DNA from: Candidatus Fraserbacteria bacterium
GTDB lineage: Bacteria; Bipolaricaulota; Bipolaricaulia; RBG-16-55-9
NCBI GenBank assembly: GCA_037442925.1
Contig: JBBIPG010000014.1
Span: 1 to 44,672, forward strand
Direction of reading: 5' to 3'
DNA: 44,672 nucleotides
Made by a program: the position numbers and the translations under genes. The notes under the pieces were generated by a model that worked only from the letters and a program-made list of their open reading frames with translations, made no database searches and was not told the DNA's origin. Shown in pieces: positions 30,398-44,592 of the stretch. Within the stretch, counting starts at the first letter, position 1. Every line of letters starts with the position of its first letter.

Positions 30398-30892
30398 TCA
30401 CAGTGAAAAGAGCACTCCAGCTGAAAAACGGGCAGTAAAGCCTTGCGCTGGGCCTTCGGCAAGAGCCATCGGAAAGAGCAAGACCGCTTCGATGGCGACC
30501 GTCCCAGGCCCTATCGGTCGCGTCTTGAGTCCTACAAGCCCCAGGATCGGGATCTGCATGCGACCGGGATGTGCCGCCTCCGCTACCCATGCCACTCCCA
30601 CCCCACCTCCGAAATAGATTCGCGCTCCCAGCCGCGTGTTGAACAAGACCAGAGTCTCCAGCTGCGTGAGTGATGCCCCTCCTAGAACGCCCAGCTCCGC
30701 TCCCAAACGCACCTGAAGCCCGTCCGAGGGGCCGACTTCTGCGATGGGGCCGAAGATCCAGACACGTTGTCCATCAACGCCTTGCATTCCGGCTTGCACC
30801 CCCAGCGTCAGCAGCAGCGGCTCGCTTGCTGCGTCCATGGCAAAGCATGACAAGGCAAGTGCCGTGATCATCCCAAGCCCGATTCGCTTCAT
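30398..30892 (-). CDS. Exported protein, probable small beta-barrel
   Basis: AAGGAGG RBS, signal peptide, amphipathic strands (YFGGGVG, RFSAGVLFSL). Confidence 0.6.
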   Translation of the reverse strand: MKRIGLGMITALALSCFAMDAASEPLLLTLGVQAGMQGVDGQRVWIFGPIAEVGPSDGLQVRLGAELGVLGGASLTQLETLVLFNTRLGARIYFGGGVGVAWVAEAAHPGRMQIPILGLVGLKTRPIGPGTVAIEAVLLFPMALAEGPAQGFTARFSAGVLFSL

Positions 30893-35752: not shown

Positions 35753-36565
35753 TCAACCCACATCCAAGATGGCGAGCGTAGGTCGGATGCCAATGCGGAA
35801 GGGCACGTGGTTATTCCCCAGCCCTGGCGAGACATACAGCTGGCTCTGGCCCACTTCATACCAACCCTTGACGAACGGTCCGCTGCCTGGGGGTACATAC
35901 GGCGTAATCCCAAAGGGAGCGATCTGACCTCCGTGCGTATGGCCTGAGAGGATCAATGCTCGCCTTTGCATCCGAGGTGCGATGTCCACGGCCAAAGCCG
36001 GGCAGTGGCTGAGAACCAGTGTAGGCAATTCCACTTCTTCTTCGAGCAACTCGAGGTTCGGCTCACCTTCGAGCCAGTCGTCCAGGCCGACAATGCGTAG
36101 CTCTGTCTCTTCGTGTTTGATCTTCACATCTTCGTTCACGAGCAACTGGACTCCTGATTCCCTGTATGCCTTTCTCAGCAATCGGCGGTTGACCCCCCGC
36201 TCGTACTCCCAGTTGCCCAGGACGGCGTACTTGCCCAGCGAGCCTTCCATTGGGCTAAAGAGATCTTTGACGAGTGGCTCATTCCCCCCGCGATCGATAG
36301 AGTCGCCTACGATGAGCAAGAGATCGCATTGAGCACGTTTCACTTCGTCGATGAGTTGAGCAACCGGGAAACGATAGTTGGGCGCATGAAAATCGGTCAT
36401 GACGCCCAGTCTCAGCGGCTTCGTAAATGCCCACACAGATCGAGAGTAGGTCTCGATCTTGAGGGTATTAGACTGCCAACCGTAGGCGCTCCCGCCCGCG
36501 AGCGTCGCGGCCAGAGCCGCTCCGCCGATCTGAAGAAACCGTCTTCTCGACATCTTGAGTTGCAT
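35753..36565 (-). CDS. Tat-exported metallophosphoesterase (YkuE-like)
   Basis: SRRRFL signal; TDFH, GDSID, GNWE, SHCP, GHTHGGQ. Confidence 0.9.
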   Translation of the reverse strand: MQLKMSRRRFLQIGGAALAATLAGGSAYGWQSNTLKIETYSRSVWAFTKPLRLGVMTDFHAPNYRFPVAQLIDEVKRAQCDLLLIVGDSIDRGGNEPLVKDLFSPMEGSLGKYAVLGNWEYERGVNRRLLRKAYRESGVQLLVNEDVKIKHEETELRIVGLDDWLEGEPNLELLEEEVELPTLVLSHCPALAVDIAPRMQRRALILSGHTHGGQIAPFGITPYVPPGSGPFVKGWYEVGQSQLYVSPGLGNNHVPFRIGIRPTLAILDVG

Positions 36566-36575
36566 AGCGTTCTTC

Positions 36576-37271
36576 TTACACAATGGGGACCAGGAGCTTC
36601 AGGAGCAGCATAAAGCCTAGCCCCAAGAGCAATGAGAAGATCACTTTGAAGTTGAAGCGCCGATGAGCATCGGGCAGAAGATCGCTGGCGCCGATGTACA
36701 AGAAATCTCCCGCAATGAAGGCCAGGGCAATATGCAAGAGATCTTCCGGGATCAACCCTGCCAGGAGTGCTCCTATGGGATAGAGTGCTCCGGCAAGACC
36801 CAAGGTGAATAAGATCTTGCCCCGACTCCAGAGAGCTTGCCTCATGATGAAGGTGGACGTGATTCCCTGAGGGATCTCATGGAGCACGACGGCCAGGGTG
36901 ATCGCCAATCCCAGGAAGGGTTCGATGAGATATCCTGCGGCGATCCCGATGCCGTCGATCACGTTGTCAAGCGCCATGCCGAACACGGCCACGGGTCCGA
37001 CCTGATGAGCCTCACACTCGCTCTCTCCGCAGGCGTGGATCATCATGACCTTTTCCAACAGGTAGAACGTGAGAAACCCAATAGCAACGTACATATAGTC
37101 GGTTTCCATGCGAACTTCTGGAAGGACATCGAAGAAGGTCACAGCAAGCAGAACACCTGCCGCGAAGGCGATGACGTAGCGAGGTTCCAGTCGCTCCGAT
37201 TTCCAGCCCAGGGCGAGCCAACCTGAAACGAGGTCGGAGAGACCCGCGATGAGGGCGTAAAGGAATTGCAT
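36576..37271 (-). CDS. ZIP-family metal transporter
   Basis: AFAAGVLL, LDNVIDG, LHEIPQG, YIGASDLLP. Confidence 0.9.
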   Translation of the reverse strand: MQFLYALIAGLSDLVSGWLALGWKSERLEPRYVIAFAAGVLLAVTFFDVLPEVRMETDYMYVAIGFLTFYLLEKVMMIHACGESECEAHQVGPVAVFGMALDNVIDGIGIAAGYLIEPFLGLAITLAVVLHEIPQGITSTFIMRQALWSRGKILFTLGLAGALYPIGALLAGLIPEDLLHIALAFIAGDFLYIGASDLLPDAHRRFNFKVIFSLLLGLGFMLLLKLLVPIV

Positions 37272-37277
37272 ACGGCA

Positions 37278-37306
37278 AGCTTAGAGAGGGTAGGGCAAGC
37301 TGTCAA
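37278..37306 (-). promoter_or_regulatory. sigma70 promoter for a leaderless ZIP gene
   Basis: Minus strand TTGACA-17 nt-TAAGCT, ATG 6 nt downstream, no SD. Confidence 0.7.
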
Positions 37307-37317
37307 GCCAGCGGATC

Positions 37318-37542
37318 TTAGATCTCGAAGTCATCCAGGCGGAAACCCTCCGTACTCTGCAGCACCTTCTTGACGCGGAGTTCGCCCTCTTCCAGTCGTT
37401 TCTTGAGTCGATCGGCCACGCGGACGCCCTCCTCGAAGAGTTTCAAAGACTCCTCCAGTGAGACGTCCTCTCCTTCCAGTGATTTCACGATCTGTTCGAG
37501 TCGGGTTAGGGCTTCTTCGACGCTCAGTTCTTTCTCCGGCAT
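37318..37542 (-). CDS. xseB: Exodeoxyribonuclease VII small subunit (start uncertain)
   Basis: EEALTRLEQIVKSLE...SLEESLKLFEEG. Confidence 0.9.
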   Translation of the reverse strand: MPEKELSVEEALTRLEQIVKSLEGEDVSLEESLKLFEEGVRVADRLKKRLEEGELRVKKVLQSTEGFRLDDFEI

Positions 37543-37761
37543 CACGCTGGCTCCTGTGGGATCATGCTTCTTCATAGCATGCTTGGGCTTCTTTGGCAAA
37601 TGCGCTTCTCTGTGTGTAATGATCGTGGTTGTATGAACGTGTTAATGACCGATTCCATCAGGGCTTGACTTCTTGGGCAAGATGTGTTATACGTTAATTG
37701 CTTTACGGATCTTATGTAGCTAAAGCATAAGAGACTACAATCTCTAAGGAGGTCATAAACA

Positions 37762-37917
37762 ATGTTGAAGTGGGGTACAGTAGCGGAGTCCAATCAGGCG
37801 GCGGAGCGGATGAACGGCTTTCTCGCGAAGATCGTAGGGAGCAAGGCGCTTTACCTACTGGTCGTGCTGGCGTCGTTCGTGTTGCTCAGTGGGGCTGGCG
37901 ACAAATTTGGTGGCTGA
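37762..37917 (+). CDS. Unannotated 51-aa peptide, putative signalling-peptide precursor
   Basis: TAAGGAGGT RBS 8 nt before ATG; MLKWGTVAESNQAAERMNGFLAKIVGSKALYLLVVLASFVLLSGAGDKFGG-stop; not in the supplied ORF track. Confidence 0.8.
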   Translation: MLKWGTVAESNQAAERMNGFLAKIVGSKALYLLVVLASFVLLSGAGDKFGG

Positions 37918-37933
37918 AGGGATAAGATGTAAG

Positions 37934-37972
37934 AGAAGAGGGAGAAGTCAGACATTGATTTTTCCCTCTTCT
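37934..37972 (+). terminator. Stem-loop between the peptide ORF and HD-GYP gene 1
   Basis: AGAAGAGGGAGAAGTCA-gacat-TGATTTTTCCCTCTTCT, 17-bp stem including two G-U pairs. Confidence 0.65.
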
Positions 37973-37988
37973 GTCTTCTAAATTTTAT

Positions 37989-39338
37989 ATGAAACTCTCG
38001 CTGAGTGCGAAACTCTATGTGTGGCTAGTAACCTTCGCTACACTCTCTGTACTTGCCTACTTTGTATCCGAGATCACCCAACTACGACAAGGTCTATCTA
38101 TACCAACGGATGATTTCCTGTGGACTTTGCTTATCTTCTCAGTTCTCGCCTTCTTCGCTCAAATCTACGAGGTTGAGCTCGTTTATAAGAGGATGACATC
38201 AACAGCTATATCTATTTGCTTGGCAACTGTCCTTCTCGGTGGATTGCCTCTCGCTATTGCAGTAACCCTTATTAGTACGCTTCTTGCAGAGCTTATTCTA
38301 CGATGGAGTAGACTGTCGGAAGGATTCATCGACCTCATTTGGCGTGTCGCCTTCAACACAGGTCAGTTTGTTCTTTCTGCTTTCGCAGCTGTTCTGGCAT
38401 TCAAACTATTAGGTGGACATCCATTGCTGCTCCGTGCTGAAAGGACATCAGAGTCATTAGTCTTCTATAACCAGTTGATTCCGGCCTTAGGAGCTTTCGT
38501 GACTTTCGCGCTCGTTAATACGTCATTTGTTTCCGGTATGCTGACTTTGTTTGAAAAGACCGCTTTCACGTACCACCTGCGCTTTAACTTGAAGCACCTT
38601 ATGGTGCAAATTCTCTCCTTAGGTGTGTTGGGCATCCTTATGGCAGTAGTTTACGCTCAGTCGCCCTGGAATCTCTTGCTCGTATTGGTCCCGTTAGGTC
38701 TTGTGCACGTCTCGCTCCGCAATTACATGAAGTTACGCCATGAAGCCCAAAAGACCTTTGAACACATAGCTGACTTGCTAAACGAACGGGATTCCTACAC
38801 TGCTAGACATTCCAACGAAACCGCGGAGCTGGCTGAGAAGATTGCAAGGAAACTTAAACTTCACCAAGATGAGATTGAAAAGGTCAAATCAGCTGCTATC
38901 ATCCATGACATCGGAAAGGTGATGGTCCCAGATCACATCCTTCAGAAGCCCGACTCTCTCACAGAAGAAGAATGGCGAATCATGCGGATGCACCCCGATA
39001 TAGGAGCCGATCTCCTCAAGGAGCTAGAGATGTACAGGGATATTGTCGACGTTATCCGCCATGAACATGAGCATTGGGATGGCGGCGGGTATCCAAAGGG
39101 CCTTAAAGGTAATGAGATTCCCATCGGCTCCCGTATTGTTGCTGCTGCTGACATATACAATGCATTGACAACTGATCGACCATATAGGCGGGCGTATTCT
39201 CACGAGGAGGCTCTCAAGAGAATGTGTGAGATGAGCGGCGTAGAGCTAGACCCTCAAGTTGTAGACGCCCTCCTAAGCGCATTGGAGGACACTCAAGCTC
39301 AGTCGAGTTCTCCACCCAAGAAGACTGCCACCGCCTAG
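37989..39338 (+). CDS. Membrane-anchored HD-GYP cyclic-dinucleotide phosphodiesterase 1
   Basis: N-terminal multi-TM sensor; RDSYT..HS, HDIGK, HPDIG, WDGGGYP, RIVAAAD, DRPYR. Confidence 0.92.
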   Translation: MKLSLSAKLYVWLVTFATLSVLAYFVSEITQLRQGLSIPTDDFLWTLLIFSVLAFFAQIYEVELVYKRMTSTAISICLATVLLGGLPLAIAVTLISTLLAELILRWSRLSEGFIDLIWRVAFNTGQFVLSAFAAVLAFKLLGGHPLLLRAERTSESLVFYNQLIPALGAFVTFALVNTSFVSGMLTLFEKTAFTYHLRFNLKHLMVQILSLGVLGILMAVVYAQSPWNLLLVLVPLGLVHVSLRNYMKLRHEAQKTFEHIADLLNERDSYTARHSNETAELAEKIARKLKLHQDEIEKVKSAAIIHDIGKVMVPDHILQKPDSLTEEEWRIMRMHPDIGADLLKELEMYRDIVDVIRHEHEHWDGGGYPKGLKGNEIPIGSRIVAAADIYNALTTDRPYRRAYSHEEALKRMCEMSGVELDPQVVDALLSALEDTQAQSSSPPKKTATA

Positions 39339-39386
39339 AAAAGCCTCACAAACTTGCCAAATGAAGCTTACACCAGCGTGAAACAG

Positions 39387-39414
39387 TTGACTTTCCCATT
39401 TGTACTCCTATAAT
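39387..39414 (+). promoter_or_regulatory. Internal sigma70 promoter for HD-GYP gene 2
   Basis: TTGACT-16 nt-TATAAT, ATG 9 nt downstream, no SD. Confidence 0.55.
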
Positions 39415-39423
39415 AAGCTTCAA

Positions 39424-40761
39424 ATGCAACTTTCGCTTAGTGCAAAGATATATATAGGTTTAATCTCAGTACTTACGCTCTTTGCCGTCGCATACTTTAC
39501 TCCTCGGATTCTCTGGCTGTCGCAAGATCTGACTATCGCACAAGCTATCAGCATCTTCGCTGTACTCGGATTCTTGACTCAAATCTACGAGGTCGAACTG
39601 ATCTACGGCAGACGTACTTCAACGATGGCTGCGATTAACATGGCAGTTATCCTGCTGGGTGGAATACCGCTTGCAATAGCAGTCACCCTTCTGGCTACTC
39701 TGATGGCAGAAATCATACTACGTTGGGGCAAACTTGCAACAGGTTTCATGAACTTTGCCTACCGAGTCTGTTTCAATACGGGTCAACTTGTTCTTTCCAC
39801 GCTGATCGGCGCTTTAACTTTCGACTTGCTTGGTGGAAGACCGTTCCTACTCAATAACGACCTTATCCAAGATGATCTTGTATTCCTTAATCAAATGACC
39901 TCAGCTGGCGGTGCCTTTGCGGCACATATAATCACAAATACATCATTGGTTTCTGGAATTCTCACGCTCTTCGAAAAGACGGCCTTCACCTATCACTTAT
40001 GGTTTAGTTTAAGGCACTTCTTGCTGCAAGTTCTGTCATTAGGCATCTTAGGTATTCTTCTGGCTCGGATTTATGCACTTTCGCCTTGGAACCTCTTGGT
40101 AATCTTGATTCCTTTAGGTTTAGTGCACATCTCACTTCGCAACTACATGAAGCTGCGTCACCAAGCCCAAAAGACCTTCGAGCGCGTGGCCCAACTGCTC
40201 AGCGACCGCGATCCCTATACCTACGAACATTCCAGCGAAGTCGCTGACCTCGCCGAGAAGATCGCCCGTAAACTCAAGCTTCCTCAAGAACAGATCGAGC
40301 ACGTCAGATCCGCCGCCGCCATCCACGATATAGGTAAACTGGGTGTTCCTGACCGAATCTTGCACAAGCCCGGCCCCCTTACCGACGAAGAATGGGTCAT
40401 CATGAAAAAACACCCTGACATCGGCGCTAATCTACTCAAAGACCTCGAAATCGATGCCTACATCATCGACATCGTCCGCCATGAACACGAACGCTGGGAT
40501 GGCTCCGGCTATCCAGGCGGCCTTAAGGGCGAGCGAATTCCCATGGGAGCCCGGATCGTCGCTGTGGCCGATGTCTATAACGCCCTCACTACCGATCGGC
40601 CCTACCGCCCCGCCTACTCCCACGAAGAAGCCCTCAGGATACTCCAAAAGATGCGCGGCACCGAACTCGATCCCCAGGTTGTGGATGCGCTCTTCAGCGT
40701 GCTCGAAGACACCTCCACATTATTAGCAACTCATACTCTGATAAGGGCGGAGGCTCACTGA
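39424..40761 (+). CDS. Membrane-anchored HD-GYP cyclic-dinucleotide phosphodiesterase 2 (paralog of 1)
   Basis: Start MQLSLSAKIY parallels MKLSLSAKLY; HDIGK, WDGSGYP, DRPYR. Confidence 0.92.
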   Translation: MQLSLSAKIYIGLISVLTLFAVAYFTPRILWLSQDLTIAQAISIFAVLGFLTQIYEVELIYGRRTSTMAAINMAVILLGGIPLAIAVTLLATLMAEIILRWGKLATGFMNFAYRVCFNTGQLVLSTLIGALTFDLLGGRPFLLNNDLIQDDLVFLNQMTSAGGAFAAHIITNTSLVSGILTLFEKTAFTYHLWFSLRHFLLQVLSLGILGILLARIYALSPWNLLVILIPLGLVHISLRNYMKLRHQAQKTFERVAQLLSDRDPYTYEHSSEVADLAEKIARKLKLPQEQIEHVRSAAAIHDIGKLGVPDRILHKPGPLTDEEWVIMKKHPDIGANLLKDLEIDAYIIDIVRHEHERWDGSGYPGGLKGERIPMGARIVAVADVYNALTTDRPYRPAYSHEEALRILQKMRGTELDPQVVDALFSVLEDTSTLLATHTLIRAEAH

Positions 40762-40763
40762 AC

Positions 40764-41312
40764 ATGTTGCTGCTCTGGGCCTTGCCAATTGGCATCTTGA
40801 TCGGCTACATCCGCGGCGGACGCCTTTCCCACCTGGCAAAACTTGAACTGCGCGGCGCTTGGCTGGTTCTCCTCGCTCTTGCGATCCAGTTGCTCATCTT
40901 CCCGCTGGGATCATCCAGGAAACCCATCATTTCGTTCGCAACAGAGTACTTCCATCTCGCTTCCTACGCTCTTCTTGTGATCTTTGTGGTTCTTAACTGG
41001 CGGGAATGGGGGATTCTCGCGATGGGCGTGGGCATGGCACTTAATCTGATCGTGATCACAGCCAACGGGGGGTATATGCCCACACAGCCAGAGCTGCTAG
41101 AAGCCGCAGGCCGCTGGGAAGCAGCTGCCAAACTTCGTGAAACCTGCACCTACGCTAACAACACCTGTATGGGCCCCGAAACTCCTCTCTGGTTCTTGGC
41201 AGATATCTTCTACGTGCCGGCTGGGGTGCCGTTTGCGAACGTCTTTAGCGTGGGGGATCTCCTGCTTGCTTTGGGATTGATCGTCTTCCTTCAAGCCAGA
41301 ATGCGGCCCTGA
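40764..41312 (+). CDS. DUF5317-family membrane protein
   Basis: GYIRGGRLSHL, NLIVITANGGYMP, LADIF, NVFSVGD; family recognised from motifs. Confidence 0.8.
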   Translation: MLLLWALPIGILIGYIRGGRLSHLAKLELRGAWLVLLALAIQLLIFPLGSSRKPIISFATEYFHLASYALLVIFVVLNWREWGILAMGVGMALNLIVITANGGYMPTQPELLEAAGRWEAAAKLRETCTYANNTCMGPETPLWFLADIFYVPAGVPFANVFSVGDLLLALGLIVFLQARMRP

Positions 41313-41361
41313 GCAGGATATGCACGCCAGGGCCGCTCAAAACTCTATATTCAGCAGGCTC

Positions 41362-41682
41362 TTACGTGTGGTGATTCTGCTGCTGGACGGCCAGGGCCCG
41401 CTGAACGTCCTTCTCTTCCGCCAGGCCTTCTTGGACTAGGATCTCCCCAATGCGCCGCTTGTTGCCTCCCTTCTTCTGCTGCTCGAGGGCCTTCTCCAGG
41501 TCTTTGAAAGAGACCCTCCCCATGTCGGCCAGAATCTCGCCCAGTTTCTTCCGCCCCTCGAAGTATTGCTCCAAAACCGTGAGGATCACGGCGCTACGAC
41601 TCTTGCGATCCCGATACGCCTTCTCATCGATCTTGTCAATGAGATACTGGTCCGCCTTGGTGTAGTAGATTGTCATCTGCAC
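41362..41682 (-). CDS. Ribbon-helix-helix protein fused to a tandem MshEN c-di-GMP-binding motif
   Basis: GGAGGAGGAG RBS before GTG; N-terminal MQMTIYYT strand and RKSRSAVILTVLEQYF helix; two 24-aa motifs KLGEILADMGRVSFKDLEKALEQQ and RIGEILVQEGLAEEKDVQRALAVQ. Confidence 0.8.
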   Translation of the reverse strand: MQMTIYYTKADQYLIDKIDEKAYRDRKSRSAVILTVLEQYFEGRKKLGEILADMGRVSFKDLEKALEQQKKGGNKRRIGEILVQEGLAEEKDVQRALAVQQQNHHT

Positions 41683-41709
41683 GGTCTATCTCCTCCTCCC
41701 GATTCCCTC

Positions 41710-41770
41710 GACTCACATGAGCGATTCTATGAGTCTACCCCAAGGTAGCACACTTTAGATAAAAATTCAA
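41710..41770 (-). promoter_or_regulatory. Promoter and inverted repeat upstream of the RHH-MshEN gene
   Basis: Minus strand TTGAAT-17-TACCTT with extended TG; GACTCA-N14-TGAGTC (41710-41735) directly after the predicted start site. Confidence 0.5.
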
Positions 41771-41906
41771 GGTGAACCCACATGCAAACTAAGAGCTATC
41801 GTGCATGAAACAGACAAGCGCGCCCTAACCCGCAGACAAAGTTCCTATGGACAAGGTTCTTGCAGGCCTATAGTAATACACGTCATATGGGAGGGGAGTG
41901 AGCCCG

Positions 41907-42479
41907 ATGCGGCTAAAGAATATGCGTCTCATCGTTGCATTGATTGGATTGTCTATTCTTCTGGTTTCCACAGCGCCTGCAACGGCCCAAGCACAGCTCG
42001 TCAACCCACAGCGGGGTATAGGTCTGTCGGTCACGTTTCCATTTGGCTTCCTGCCAACCGTGCCTTTGACGAATACGGCCACCTTCTTCTTGAACTTGCT
42101 GGCCCAAGGACAGATCAGTGGAGAACTCGTGTATCAAACGGAACTGCGCTTCTTCATCGACGCTCTTGGCTTCCAGACGGCTTTGACCTCGATACGGGAA
42201 TCCGTGCTCATCTTGTTCACTCCCTCTCCGGCGTCCTTCTACATTGGAGCCGGGCTGGGGGCCTTCCCCATCCGCGTCCCGGCCGTGCCATCGGATGGCT
42301 TCTTGCTCTCGTTCCTCATCCGAACCGGAGTGGAAGTGCAGGTCTTCCCCTTGGGGCTCTTCCTCGATATCACGTATGAGACGATGCCTCAGCCGTTTGC
42401 CGATATCGCTGGTGGCACGTTCACACCGGCGACGATCTCAGCCCTGCAGCTCAGTTTTGGAGCTCTGATCCACTTCTAA
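41907..42479 (+). CDS. Exported protein, probable outer-membrane beta-barrel
   Basis: Signal peptide ending A-x-A, alternating hydrophobic strands, C-terminal LQLSFGALIHF with terminal Phe. Confidence 0.65.
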   Translation: MRLKNMRLIVALIGLSILLVSTAPATAQAQLVNPQRGIGLSVTFPFGFLPTVPLTNTATFFLNLLAQGQISGELVYQTELRFFIDALGFQTALTSIRESVLILFTPSPASFYIGAGLGAFPIRVPAVPSDGFLLSFLIRTGVEVQVFPLGLFLDITYETMPQPFADIAGGTFTPATISALQLSFGALIHF

Positions 42480-42588: not shown

Positions 42589-44592
42589 ATGAAAAAACTT
42601 CACAGGCTCGGTTTCGGCGGACTCCTCCTGCTCCTCGGAATTCTCACCGGATGTTCCCAGCTCTTTCCCAACGATCCACTGAAAGACTCCTCAGACACGC
42701 TAGAACTCTCAGGCACATCCGCTTGGCTCATCGCTGCTCAAGGTCAGGGTGGATCTCCCAACTGTGTGAGGGATCTCGCTCCTGGCCAGGCCAAGAAACT
42801 GGCAGAGAAGGCCCTCAAGGACAAACGAGAGATCCAATTACTCCAGCAGGCTCTCGAACGCCGGGGCAAGAAGCTCGTACTCAGCAAGGCCCACGGCTGC
42901 CAGGTGAAGGGCAAGCTTGGCGGCCAAGGACTCAGCACTCAACAGGAAGCCGCTACAGAAGCCACCCTGGTGGAAGTGCCTGCGGGCTCGGATGCGGCTC
43001 TGTATTTGTTGGAGAACGAGACGGTGGACGAAGGCAACTACTGGGCCGCGCTCAGGGAATCCGCAGAAGGTGGCGAGACGCTGGTCCATATTGAAGTCGG
43101 CCTAGCAAGCGATACCGGGGTGCAAGGGTTGAGCACGGAGCCTGGGGAGGCGAAGCTCTTCCTCCCCGATGAGCTGGGCACGCAAGAGGTGGCTTCAGAT
43201 CTTGAACAGCTCTTGGCAGAATCGGCCACCATGAGTGCGGGTGTAAGAGCCCTGCAGACGGAAGCGCTAGACTGGGCGAATGCGGAAGTAGTCTTGGATA
43301 AGACTTCTGTGACAGTCAACGCCGATGGGTCGGAGGAGATGGAGGCATTAGTGGTTGTGCCCCAGATGGAGTCGACAACTCAACAGCTGTGGAGCAGGAG
43401 CCGGCCTTCTATCGATGTGGAGCGGGCCACACATGTGAAGGTGACGGTGAGGAGAACACCGCCGTCGCCGAGCAACCCGCGACCCCAGCTGCAGGTGGTC
43501 AGACCCACTCCAGAGCAGCCAGTGGTGCTGCCCATAGTGAAGAAGGGAGTTGAGCTGAAGCCAGCGTTCCAGTATTGTCCGTATCGGCATTACGGACGGT
43601 TGAGCTCGTTCAGCAGGGTGATGTGCCAGGATTCTTGGAAGCAGTGGTATGGAAAGCAGTGGGCTAGTAACGCTGTTCAGAGCAAGGTACTTCAAGCATC
43701 GGGAGCTGCCGCGAGTTCGGATACGTATAACATCACCTATGCGAGGGATGGTAAACGTGGGATCGATCTTCTTGCTGCAGGCTTCGACAACTTGAACCCG
43801 TCAGACCTGCAAAGGATGTTCGATTATGTTGCTACTACCAACCAAGCGAGCATTCTAGTACAACTGCCGTCTGAGGTCCTGCAGCGTTGGGAGCAAGCCC
43901 AACCTCTGTTTAACGGGATCTCAGACGAGCAGTTCACGACCTGGTTAAGAGCCTTGGCCGAAGCCATGCAGCAAGGGACATTTGACCAAGTATATGACCA
44001 GCTGCTCACTCAGGGTATAACTCAGCTAGAAGAGGCCATTATGGTTCTAAATGGCACAAATGATCGGAACATCGCAAAGAGCATCATTAGGGAGATGGCA
44101 CAGAAGCTACCAAAACCCCGAACTTCTCTCACGGCCACACTGTTTCCATCGAACGTGGAGCAGGCGATCATCGACTATATGAACTTGGCAAGGGACCACC
44201 TGGAACGTGTATTCTTGAATCTCCAAGCGAGTCGTGAGATAAGTGAGTTACTGTTAACAGGATTCGGCTTAGGCAAGATCGTGGAGAAGATCTGCGGAAC
44301 AGTTTCTCCAGTCTGTAGCAAATTCGTAGAGGATACTCTCTCCGCAATACTACCGAAACAACCGTATGCAGTCATAAATGAACTCATGAATCTATGGGAT
44401 AGAGTAATCTCGAATCTCGAACTTGTTGACCCCACGGGGAATGTGGCCTTAAAGTTCTCCGATGCAATGAATACGATCATTCAATGGTTTAAGTTCGGAA
44501 ACTTGACTTTCTGGAGACTTGGGCCAGAGCAACCGGGTCACCAGCCAGCCGAGCCAGGCCTGACAGAGGACAAACTAGAAGCGGTCTCATAA
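42589..44592 (+). CDS. Large lipoprotein of unknown function, probably truncated at the 3' end by an IS insertion
   Basis: MKK plus hydrophobic segment and LTG-C lipobox; the stop codon lies within the putative IS end. Confidence 0.8.
   Translation: MKKLHRLGFGGLLLLLGILTGCSQLFPNDPLKDSSDTLELSGTSAWLIAAQGQGGSPNCVRDLAPGQAKKLAEKALKDKREIQLLQQALERRGKKLVLSKAHGCQVKGKLGGQGLSTQQEAATEATLVEVPAGSDAALYLLENETVDEGNYWAALRESAEGGETLVHIEVGLASDTGVQGLSTEPGEAKLFLPDELGTQEVASDLEQLLAESATMSAGVRALQTEALDWANAEVVLDKTSVTVNADGSEEMEALVVVPQMESTTQQLWSRSRPSIDVERATHVKVTVRRTPPSPSNPRPQLQVVRPTPEQPVVLPIVKKGVELKPAFQYCPYRHYGRLSSFSRVMCQDSWKQWYGKQWASNAVQSKVLQASGAAASSDTYNITYARDGKRGIDLLAAGFDNLNPSDLQRMFDYVATTNQASILVQLPSEVLQRWEQAQPLFNGISDEQFTTWLRALAEAMQQGTFDQVYDQLLTQGITQLEEAIMVLNGTNDRNIAKSIIREMAQKLPKPRTSLTATLFPSNVEQAIIDYMNLARDHLERVFLNLQASREISELLLTGFGLGKIVEKICGTVSPVCSKFVEDTLSAILPKQPYAVINELMNLWDRVISNLELVDPTGNVALKFSDAMNTIIQWFKFGNLTFWRLGPEQPGHQPAEPGLTEDKLEAVS

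Follow-up and report, generated by a model that had tools for sequence, protein, structure and literature searches.

A conserved 51-codon peptide gene and its co-varying MASE9 sensor point to a possible strain-specific peptide signalling system in Bipolaricaulota

In a stretch of 44,672 nucleotides from a Candidatus Fraserbacteria bacterium, in the following called the window, a 51-codon gene encoding a signal-peptide-like peptide precedes two genes for membrane receptors of the MASE9-HD-GYP type and one for a DUF5317 protein. Together with its co-varying MASE9 sensor, the peptide gene suggests a strain-specific system of peptide signalling that has so far gone undescribed. Within the literature searched, which included few subscription papers, neither a paper on DUF5317 nor a description of a peptide-MASE9-DUF5317 module was found. 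The elements of the locus are, in window positions:

37745..37753, + strand: ribosome-binding site TAAGGAGGT, 8 nt upstream of the ATG, as read from the sequence
37762..37917, + strand: peptide gene of 51 codons, comprising an N-region (residues 1-27, beginning M-L-K-W-G), K28, hydrophobic residues A29-L42, S43-G44 and the tail A45-G51
37894..37914, + strand: codons of the predicted released peptide AGDKFGG (family pattern A/E-x-x-K-W/F-x1-3; inferred cut site)
37934..37972, + strand: 17-bp hairpin between the peptide gene and receptor 1 (-28.4 kcal/mol, z -3.46)
37989..39338, + strand: receptor 1, a MASE9-type membrane domain (about residues 1-250) followed by HD-GYP (HD_5), candidate cognate receptor
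39387..39414, + strand: sigma70-like promoter match TTGACT-16-TATAAT (11/12), 9 nt before the receptor 2 ATG
39424..40761, + strand: receptor 2, a paralogous MASE9-HD-GYP protein, 63% identical to receptor 1
40764..41312, + strand: DUF5317 (PF17248), a five-helix membrane protein, candidate LspA-like peptidase
41362..41682, - strand: convergent small regulator of 106 codons with an RHH-like N-terminus and an MshEN-type c-di-GMP-binding tandem motif

Judged by its conservation and codon pattern, the 51-codon peptide gene is real and under purifying selection. An earlier note on this DNA had described a 51-residue reading frame behind a ribosome-binding site, and both are borne out: TAAGGAGGT at 37745-37753 lies 8 nt from the ATG, and translation of 37762-37917 yields K28, the hydrophobic stretch A29-L42 and a tail S43-G51. 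A Shine-Dalgarno sequence precedes the start in relatives of the gene, too. Conservation in relatives, set beforehand as a test, is observed, as matches with E<=0.001 occur in 20 of 41 genomes, its own genome counted, and the family profile matches in 94 of the 121 genomes of the phylum (Bipolaricaulota). The differences from the closest relative are distributed 12/2/21 over codon positions 1/2/3 with a pN/pS of 0.25, while the values against the second and third closest relatives amount to 0.53 and 0.34. Within 80 DUF5317 loci the peptide profile has 67 matches, every one of them on the strand of the DUF5317 gene. As a control of specificity, the same rule was applied to the 58,345 open segments of the own genome and yields a single match, namely the peptide gene itself. 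Since the conserved frame, the Shine-Dalgarno sequence and the codon pattern all belong to 37762-37917, the overlapping frames at 37770-37925 (+) and 37572-37793 (-) were rejected. The description of the peptide as unannotated stands in so far as no Pfam or NCBIfam family fits it, any weak match being common to at most two of 54 members; the exact protein, however, is already present in a public protein collection. Named relatives carry the label "hypothetical protein" (3 of the 15 members listed), and matches to the family also occur in records labelled Spirochaetales/Alkalispirochaeta, Actinomycetota, Bacillota and Ca. Sysuimicrobium. As a side observation, most Bipolaricaulota precursors begin with M-(L)-K-W-G (37762-37776 in the window), an echo of the C-terminal K-W-x, and some of those from Bacillota with M-K/R-W-R.

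The anatomy of the precursor was derived from 72 unique peptides of 26 to 53 residues, a set whose construction favours K and W. The N-region is mostly positively charged, the run of uncharged residues behind K or R is exactly 16 long in 69 of the 72 peptides, and the C-terminus reads G-A-x-x-K-W-x(0-7, mostly 1-3) with as many as 61 different tails. These features support the earlier view of a signal-peptide-like precursor carrying a short, variable cargo. Among the 87 modules compared, a tryptophan near the C-terminus is present in 85, the window peptide being one of the two with Phe instead; the codons which specify AGDKFGG in the window encode AGEKWGG in the near-identical relative P0298. 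The lysine of the tail is kept in 87 of 87 modules, in part owing to the way the set was built. At the two x positions of the tail pN/pS reaches 0.58-0.92 as against 0.13-0.24 in the hydrophobic segment, although tail residues of no importance would give a value near 1 as well. The proposed resemblance to a lipobox with Ala in place of Cys is supported: positions -3 to -1, [LV][ASTVI][GAS], read L-S-G in the window, the strict pattern is found in 31 and a loose one in 62 of the 72 peptides, and Cys at +1 occurs in none of them. As it is the invariant Cys at +1 which defines the lipobox of lipoproteins (PMC8048626), the peptides are not lipoproteins, and a lipoprotein precursor serving as LspA substrate is ruled out. 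Of the two products that had been proposed, AGDKFGG and GDKFGG, the family favours the former; a single conserved cut, if there is one, would fall between G and A. In some modules (L193, L203-L206 and others), which occur as arrays of 3-5 copies, Glu or Gln stands first in the tail, and the longer tails end in Pro, Gly or Arg.

The link of the peptide to the downstream membrane HD-GYP gene, likewise part of the earlier note, is supported by the order peptide, receptor, DUF5317, which is found in 85 of 87 unique modules; in the window the receptor is present in two copies. Left out of that note were the third conserved gene, DUF5317, and the convergent RHH-MshEN-type regulator. A peptide gene lies near 40 of the 48 DUF5317 loci having at least 2 kb of upstream sequence, a count which is partly circular since the profile was iterated once on the 80 DUF5317 loci taken from GTDB. 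Five of the eight loci devoid of a peptide match belong to Chloroflexota, one of these five having a variant just below the threshold. The hairpin at 37934..37972 is possibly a terminator or an mRNA stabiliser; the terminator scan did not call it, and a marked hairpin (z<-2) is present in 33 of 81 modules and thus not universal. The sigma70-like match before receptor 2, which may give rise to a leaderless transcript, is a match to the consensus only, with four such sites found and 3.8 expected in shuffled sequence. As a further observation, 19 of 78 receptor starts, whose placement is rough, have a -10-like hexamer 5-12 nt upstream compared with 24 of 936 control windows, a hint that transcripts of the receptors lack a leader. 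Apart from a single chance miRNA match, Rfam gave no noteworthy family at 36500-42000, and a c-di-GMP-II riboswitch was not found in the genome, which is 94% complete.

The protein encoded at 41362..41682 matches the c-di-GMP-binding domains of PilF and MshE (PDB sequences), while its match to RHH_1 is weak (E 0.051); Pfam MshEN (PF05157) is without a match in the genome. Its family is found in 104 of the 121 genomes of the phylum, and its gene adjoins that of DUF5317 in six loci of the own family. The protein is a candidate c-di-GMP-responsive transcription factor, which would act as a reader of the c-di-GMP output.

By family membership, the N-terminal domain of the receptors is MASE9. The respective model (PF20972) matches 35 of 74 aligned receptor homologues, whereas the two window proteins alone remain below it; the score of the receptor to MASE9 clusters in the Atlas is 0.90. 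Receptors 1 and 2 are the sole matches of the HD-GYP profile in the genome, which also has one GGDEF match. Compared with the reference motifs (HD, HHExh[DN]GxGYP, RxxK), both keep HD, GYP and RPYR, yet HHE reads EHE in either of them (e.g. 39062-39085). Glu replaces the first His of this motif in 59 of the 63 modules matched by the pattern, 24 of the 87 having given no match. Because HHE mostly reads EHE, HD-GYP activity of the receptors is likely but not certain, and the metal site and activity of these domains may differ from those of typical enzymes. Asn often stands for the second Asp of D-x-x-D in the HD-GYP domains of the modules. The architecture of the window receptors is that of Thermotoga maritima TM1467 and Streptomyces venezuelae HdgA (10.1101/2021.11.05.467447, PMC6205966), from which they differ in the Glu that mostly takes the place of the first His. 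The preprint defining MASE9 proposes ligand binding within the membrane, and its main text names no ligand and does not contain the word "peptide" (10.1101/2021.11.05.467447). The passages describing TM1467 and HdgA mention no ligand, peptide or DUF5317 partner; mutants of hdgA showed no phenotype in development, for which the authors propose a lack of activating signals as the reason (PMC6205966).

The central observation is that the tail of the peptide varies together with the MASE9 domain. When the window is compared with its near-identical relative, 228 of 231 residues of a ZIP transporter, 48 of 51 of the peptide, 414 of 445 of receptor 2 and 168 of 182 of DUF5317 are identical. In receptor 1, by contrast, the identity drops to 303 of 444 residues (68%) and to 39-65% over residues 1-200, and the tail reads GEKW in the relative versus GDKF in the window, with two of the three changes in the peptide falling into the tail. 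Receptor 2, being of the same domain type and situated in the same locus, serves as the control for this swap. The relative is known from its proteins, which are placed on one contig solely by their common contig size of 24,774 bases, and its DNA was not found in metagenome contigs. Elsewhere a mosaic pattern is visible at synonymous sites. In the pair L115/L137 fourfold sites differ at 37 of 57 positions in MASE9 versus 15 of 182 in HD-GYP and DUF5317, and in L092/L107 at 53 of 78 versus 57 of 202, while the same-tail pair L110/L130 shows no synonymous excess in MASE9; the excess survives a correction for base composition. Mapped onto trees of the 87 modules, which are non-independent kin mostly taken from metagenome assemblies, the tails require 134.1+/-2.4 changes on MASE9 trees versus 143.0 on the HD-GYP and 144.3 on the DUF5317 tree, with the fewest changes on MASE9 trees in 51 of 52 bootstraps. 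The leaders need 348.8, 346.6 and 344.3 changes on the MASE9, HD-GYP and DUF5317 trees, respectively, the last being slightly best, and hence do not follow the sensor. In addition, 26 of 87 modules contain 2-6 intact peptide copies, and the tandem arrays (e.g. L192, L193, L194, L204; up to 6-7 copies) mostly keep one core tail on diverged leaders. This co-variation supports the view that tail and sensor are matched alleles exchanged between lineages in the manner of pherotypes.

Several results speak against too firm a reading of this pattern. Because the peptide gene abuts the MASE9 half of the receptor gene, linkage alone makes both co-vary, and in a partial Mantel test leader and tail correlate equally with MASE9 (r 0.28 and 0.29). 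Among 15 disjoint close pairs the synonymous excess of same-tail pairs (-0.02 to 0.21) does not differ significantly from that of changed-tail pairs (-0.21 to 0.75; p 0.27), and four of the ten changed-tail pairs are free of such an excess. In these 15 pairs the amino-acid excess correlates with the distance between tails (rho 0.53, p 0.04), yet its correlation with the distance between leaders is almost as strong (rho 0.50, p 0.06). Over 44 non-independent pairs the synonymous excess showed no significant correlation with tail distance (rho 0.21, p 0.18), and column-wise mutual information between the tail and the receptor columns gave no signal. A partial counter-example is provided by L115/L253, which share six tail residues and differ only in the seventh, while their sensors differ by 61%.

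DUF5317 is the constant partner in the module. It is present in 107 of the 121 genomes of the phylum, its family comprises 6,578 clusters at 50% identity, and Thermus thermophilus and Thermotoga maritima carry it as well; no relative was confirmed in viral contigs. All 147 representatives examined share N78, N94, D147, S162 and D165 without exception. The two aspartates are located on the side of the protein with few K/R residues, which by this distribution is presumably its outer face, and the predicted fold is confident (pLDDT 92). LspA (A8) uses D124/D143 as catalytic pair (PMC8048626), and DUF5317 resembles it in possessing two invariant, presumably outward aspartates 18 positions apart; its series G-x-x-x-N / D / F-x-x-x-D parallels the motifs of fetched LspA sequences. 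Likewise, the peptide shares the L-S-G before the inferred cut with lipobox substrates of LspA, though not their Cys. DUF5317 differs from LspA by about 40 additional residues before the first aspartate and by its N-terminal half, and the genome keeps a separate canonical LspA. A fold search with residues 56-182 placed LspA (5DIR) at rank 2 of 48,161 chains (Z 4.7, rmsd 3.5, 84 aligned), a weak match that unrelated helical proteins equal (top row Z 5.0) and that counts only because LspA had been the prior guess. Full-length fold searches listed no LspA, Foldseek with residues 56-182 returned nothing, a sequence search of the PDB gave noise only, and the Atlas held no usable match outside PF17248. 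PF17248 alone matches the protein, PF01252 does not, and profile-profile comparison with LspA by hhalign gave E 0.028 and 0.067, confined to the last helix. Fusions among the 12 long proteins scanned, namely to MFS transporters (7), GAF/PAS-GGDEF (2, with DUF5317 N-terminal) and TPR (2), point both ways with respect to a role as peptidase or as sensor. On a plasmid of Euzebya pacifica (L190:1730-6397), a 29-codon peptide gene, absent from the listed features, is followed by a GGDEF-EAL gene and a DUF5317-EAL fusion, so that the output domain appears exchangeable.

Taken together, we consider it rather likely that DUF5317 cuts the precursor between G44 and A45 and that the freed AGDKFGG is read by the adjacent MASE9 sensor, which tunes c-di-GMP. 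The precursor would insert N-in/C-out, its hydrophobic segment of fixed length putting the G44/A45 bond at the outer membrane surface, where DUF5317, as an LspA-like two-aspartate membrane peptidase which needs no lipidated Cys, would release the heptapeptide. The freed tail would then bind, as the co-variation suggests, to the MASE9 domain of receptor 1 as its candidate ligand. Binding would alter HD-GYP activity and hence the c-di-GMP level, in either direction, and the neighbouring RHH-MshEN-type protein is the candidate reader of this change.

Alternatively, the peptide might stay uncleaved as a single-pass membrane microprotein which, through its helix and its outward K-W/F tail, would bind the cognate MASE9 domain within the same membrane and thereby set HD-GYP activity, with DUF5317 acting as a scaffold or cutting the peptide merely as an off-switch. 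We regard this, the main rival, as rather unlikely. In its favour, about 19 residues separate K28 and K48, an aromatic residue follows K48, and such a K...K-W frame is the look of an ordinary transmembrane helix, too. The helix contains conserved Y, L and L/F positions, while signal peptides are usually less conserved in sequence than the hydrophobic segment seen here. MgrB, which acts on PhoQ, exemplifies a small membrane regulator of this kind. The correlation of the leader with MASE9 in the partial Mantel test and the ligand binding within the membrane that is proposed for MASE9 (10.1101/2021.11.05.467447) agree with this explanation, and matched peptide-sensor alleles are expected from it as well. 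A private regulator, however, gives no clear reason why deeply diverged sensor alleles should be swapped together with the tail while the leader and the neighbours at the swapped locus remain near-identical. Nor does it account for arrays in which up to 6-7 copies combine a single tail with diverged leaders, or for the constant partner with its two invariant outward aspartates.

That housekeeping signal peptidase I cuts after S-G-A to yield GDKFGG, leaving uptake, trimming or a co-receptor function to DUF5317, appears very improbable. S43-G44-A45 of the window does fit A-x-A, and 50 of the 72 peptides, the window peptide included, pass a small/small test at the S43 and A45 positions. Yet Glu or Gln occupies the A45 position in 20 of 87 modules, a poor fit to a signal peptidase I cut after this residue, while the residue at the G44 position remains a small one (G/A/S/C) in 84 of 87, and the fixed 16-residue segment suggests a dedicated ruler. 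Hardly any probability attaches to DUF5317 being itself the peptide sensor or co-receptor, binding the invariant Lys through its aspartates and relaying to c-di-GMP enzymes without any cutting. Its N-terminal fusions to GAF/PAS-GGDEF in two of the 12 long representatives, the EAL fusion on the Euzebya plasmid bearing an upstream peptide gene and the lysine kept in every tail (again partly by construction) are what one would expect of such a sensor. Against it, the variable tail follows the MASE9 tree and not that of DUF5317, DUF5317 is still 92% identical where tail and receptor 1 switch, and its motif series parallels that of LspA.

Among known systems, staphylococcal agr and ComQXPA of Bacillus come closest. 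In agr the precursor AgrD bears a Cys that forms a thiolactone, is processed by the peptidase AgrB and is sensed by the histidine kinase AgrC; in ComQXPA, ComX carries a Trp near its C-terminus that is prenylated, ComQ is the isoprenyl transferase and ComP the histidine kinase. As in both systems, adjacent co-oriented genes encode a precursor, a candidate processing factor and a membrane receptor, and the Trp near the C-terminus recalls ComX. The pherotypes of ComQXPA are polymorphic peptide-sensor alleles (PMC4008528), a property which here is suggested by the co-variation of the sequences. In contrast to both, the receptor is a MASE9-HD-GYP protein instead of a histidine kinase, the precursor consists of a signal-peptide-like helix with a tail of 5-8 residues, and no homologous part was found. 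Unlike agr precursors, the window peptide has no Cys for a thiolactone, and agr families are absent from the 11 window proteins scanned as well as from the 54 peptides. An assignment to ComQXPA is contradicted by the Phe of the window peptide and by its neighbours, HD-GYP and DUF5317; this Phe in place of Trp also means that prenylation of Trp is not obligatory here. With the MgrB-PhoQ type the module shares a single-pass protein of 30-50 residues encoded beside a membrane sensor, yet it differs from it in the hypervariable tail matched to exchanged sensor alleles, the tandem amplification and the constant protease-like partner.

We judge it evenly balanced whether the module represents a new class of quorum or kin sensing by peptides. 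In such a class a Cys-free "pseudo-lipoprotein" precursor would be cut by DUF5317, and the resulting 5-8-mer would be read allele-specifically by MASE9 and translated directly into a change of c-di-GMP. The class would be near-core in Bipolaricaulota and occur in at least four other phyla, its cassettes being swapped by recombination. If true, this would assign a ligand to the orphan sensor family MASE9 and a function to the large unknown family DUF5317; it would also extend the membrane aspartic peptidases by a new branch and connect a secreted peptide directly with c-di-GMP. It would further suggest that strains communicate in an uncultured phylum in which 107 of the 121 genomes searched have DUF5317 and 94 have the peptide.

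Some minor observations may be added. In L191 (G005:C11) four tandem peptide genes are present, three of which share their tail while the first has a divergent helix and another tail; the DUF5317 gene of this genome is located on another contig. Within the window, the reading frames 30398-30892 (-), 41898-42479 (+) and 42589-44592 (+) have hydrophobic signal-like N-termini and no Pfam family above cut-off. In the receptor region (37989-40761) the G+C content of fourfold sites is 0.37 and 0.41 in the two MASE9 halves and 0.43 in the HD-GYP half of receptor 1, and is higher in the HD-GYP half of receptor 2 (0.76) and in DUF5317 (0.63). The MASE9 DNA is AT-richer across the relatives as well.
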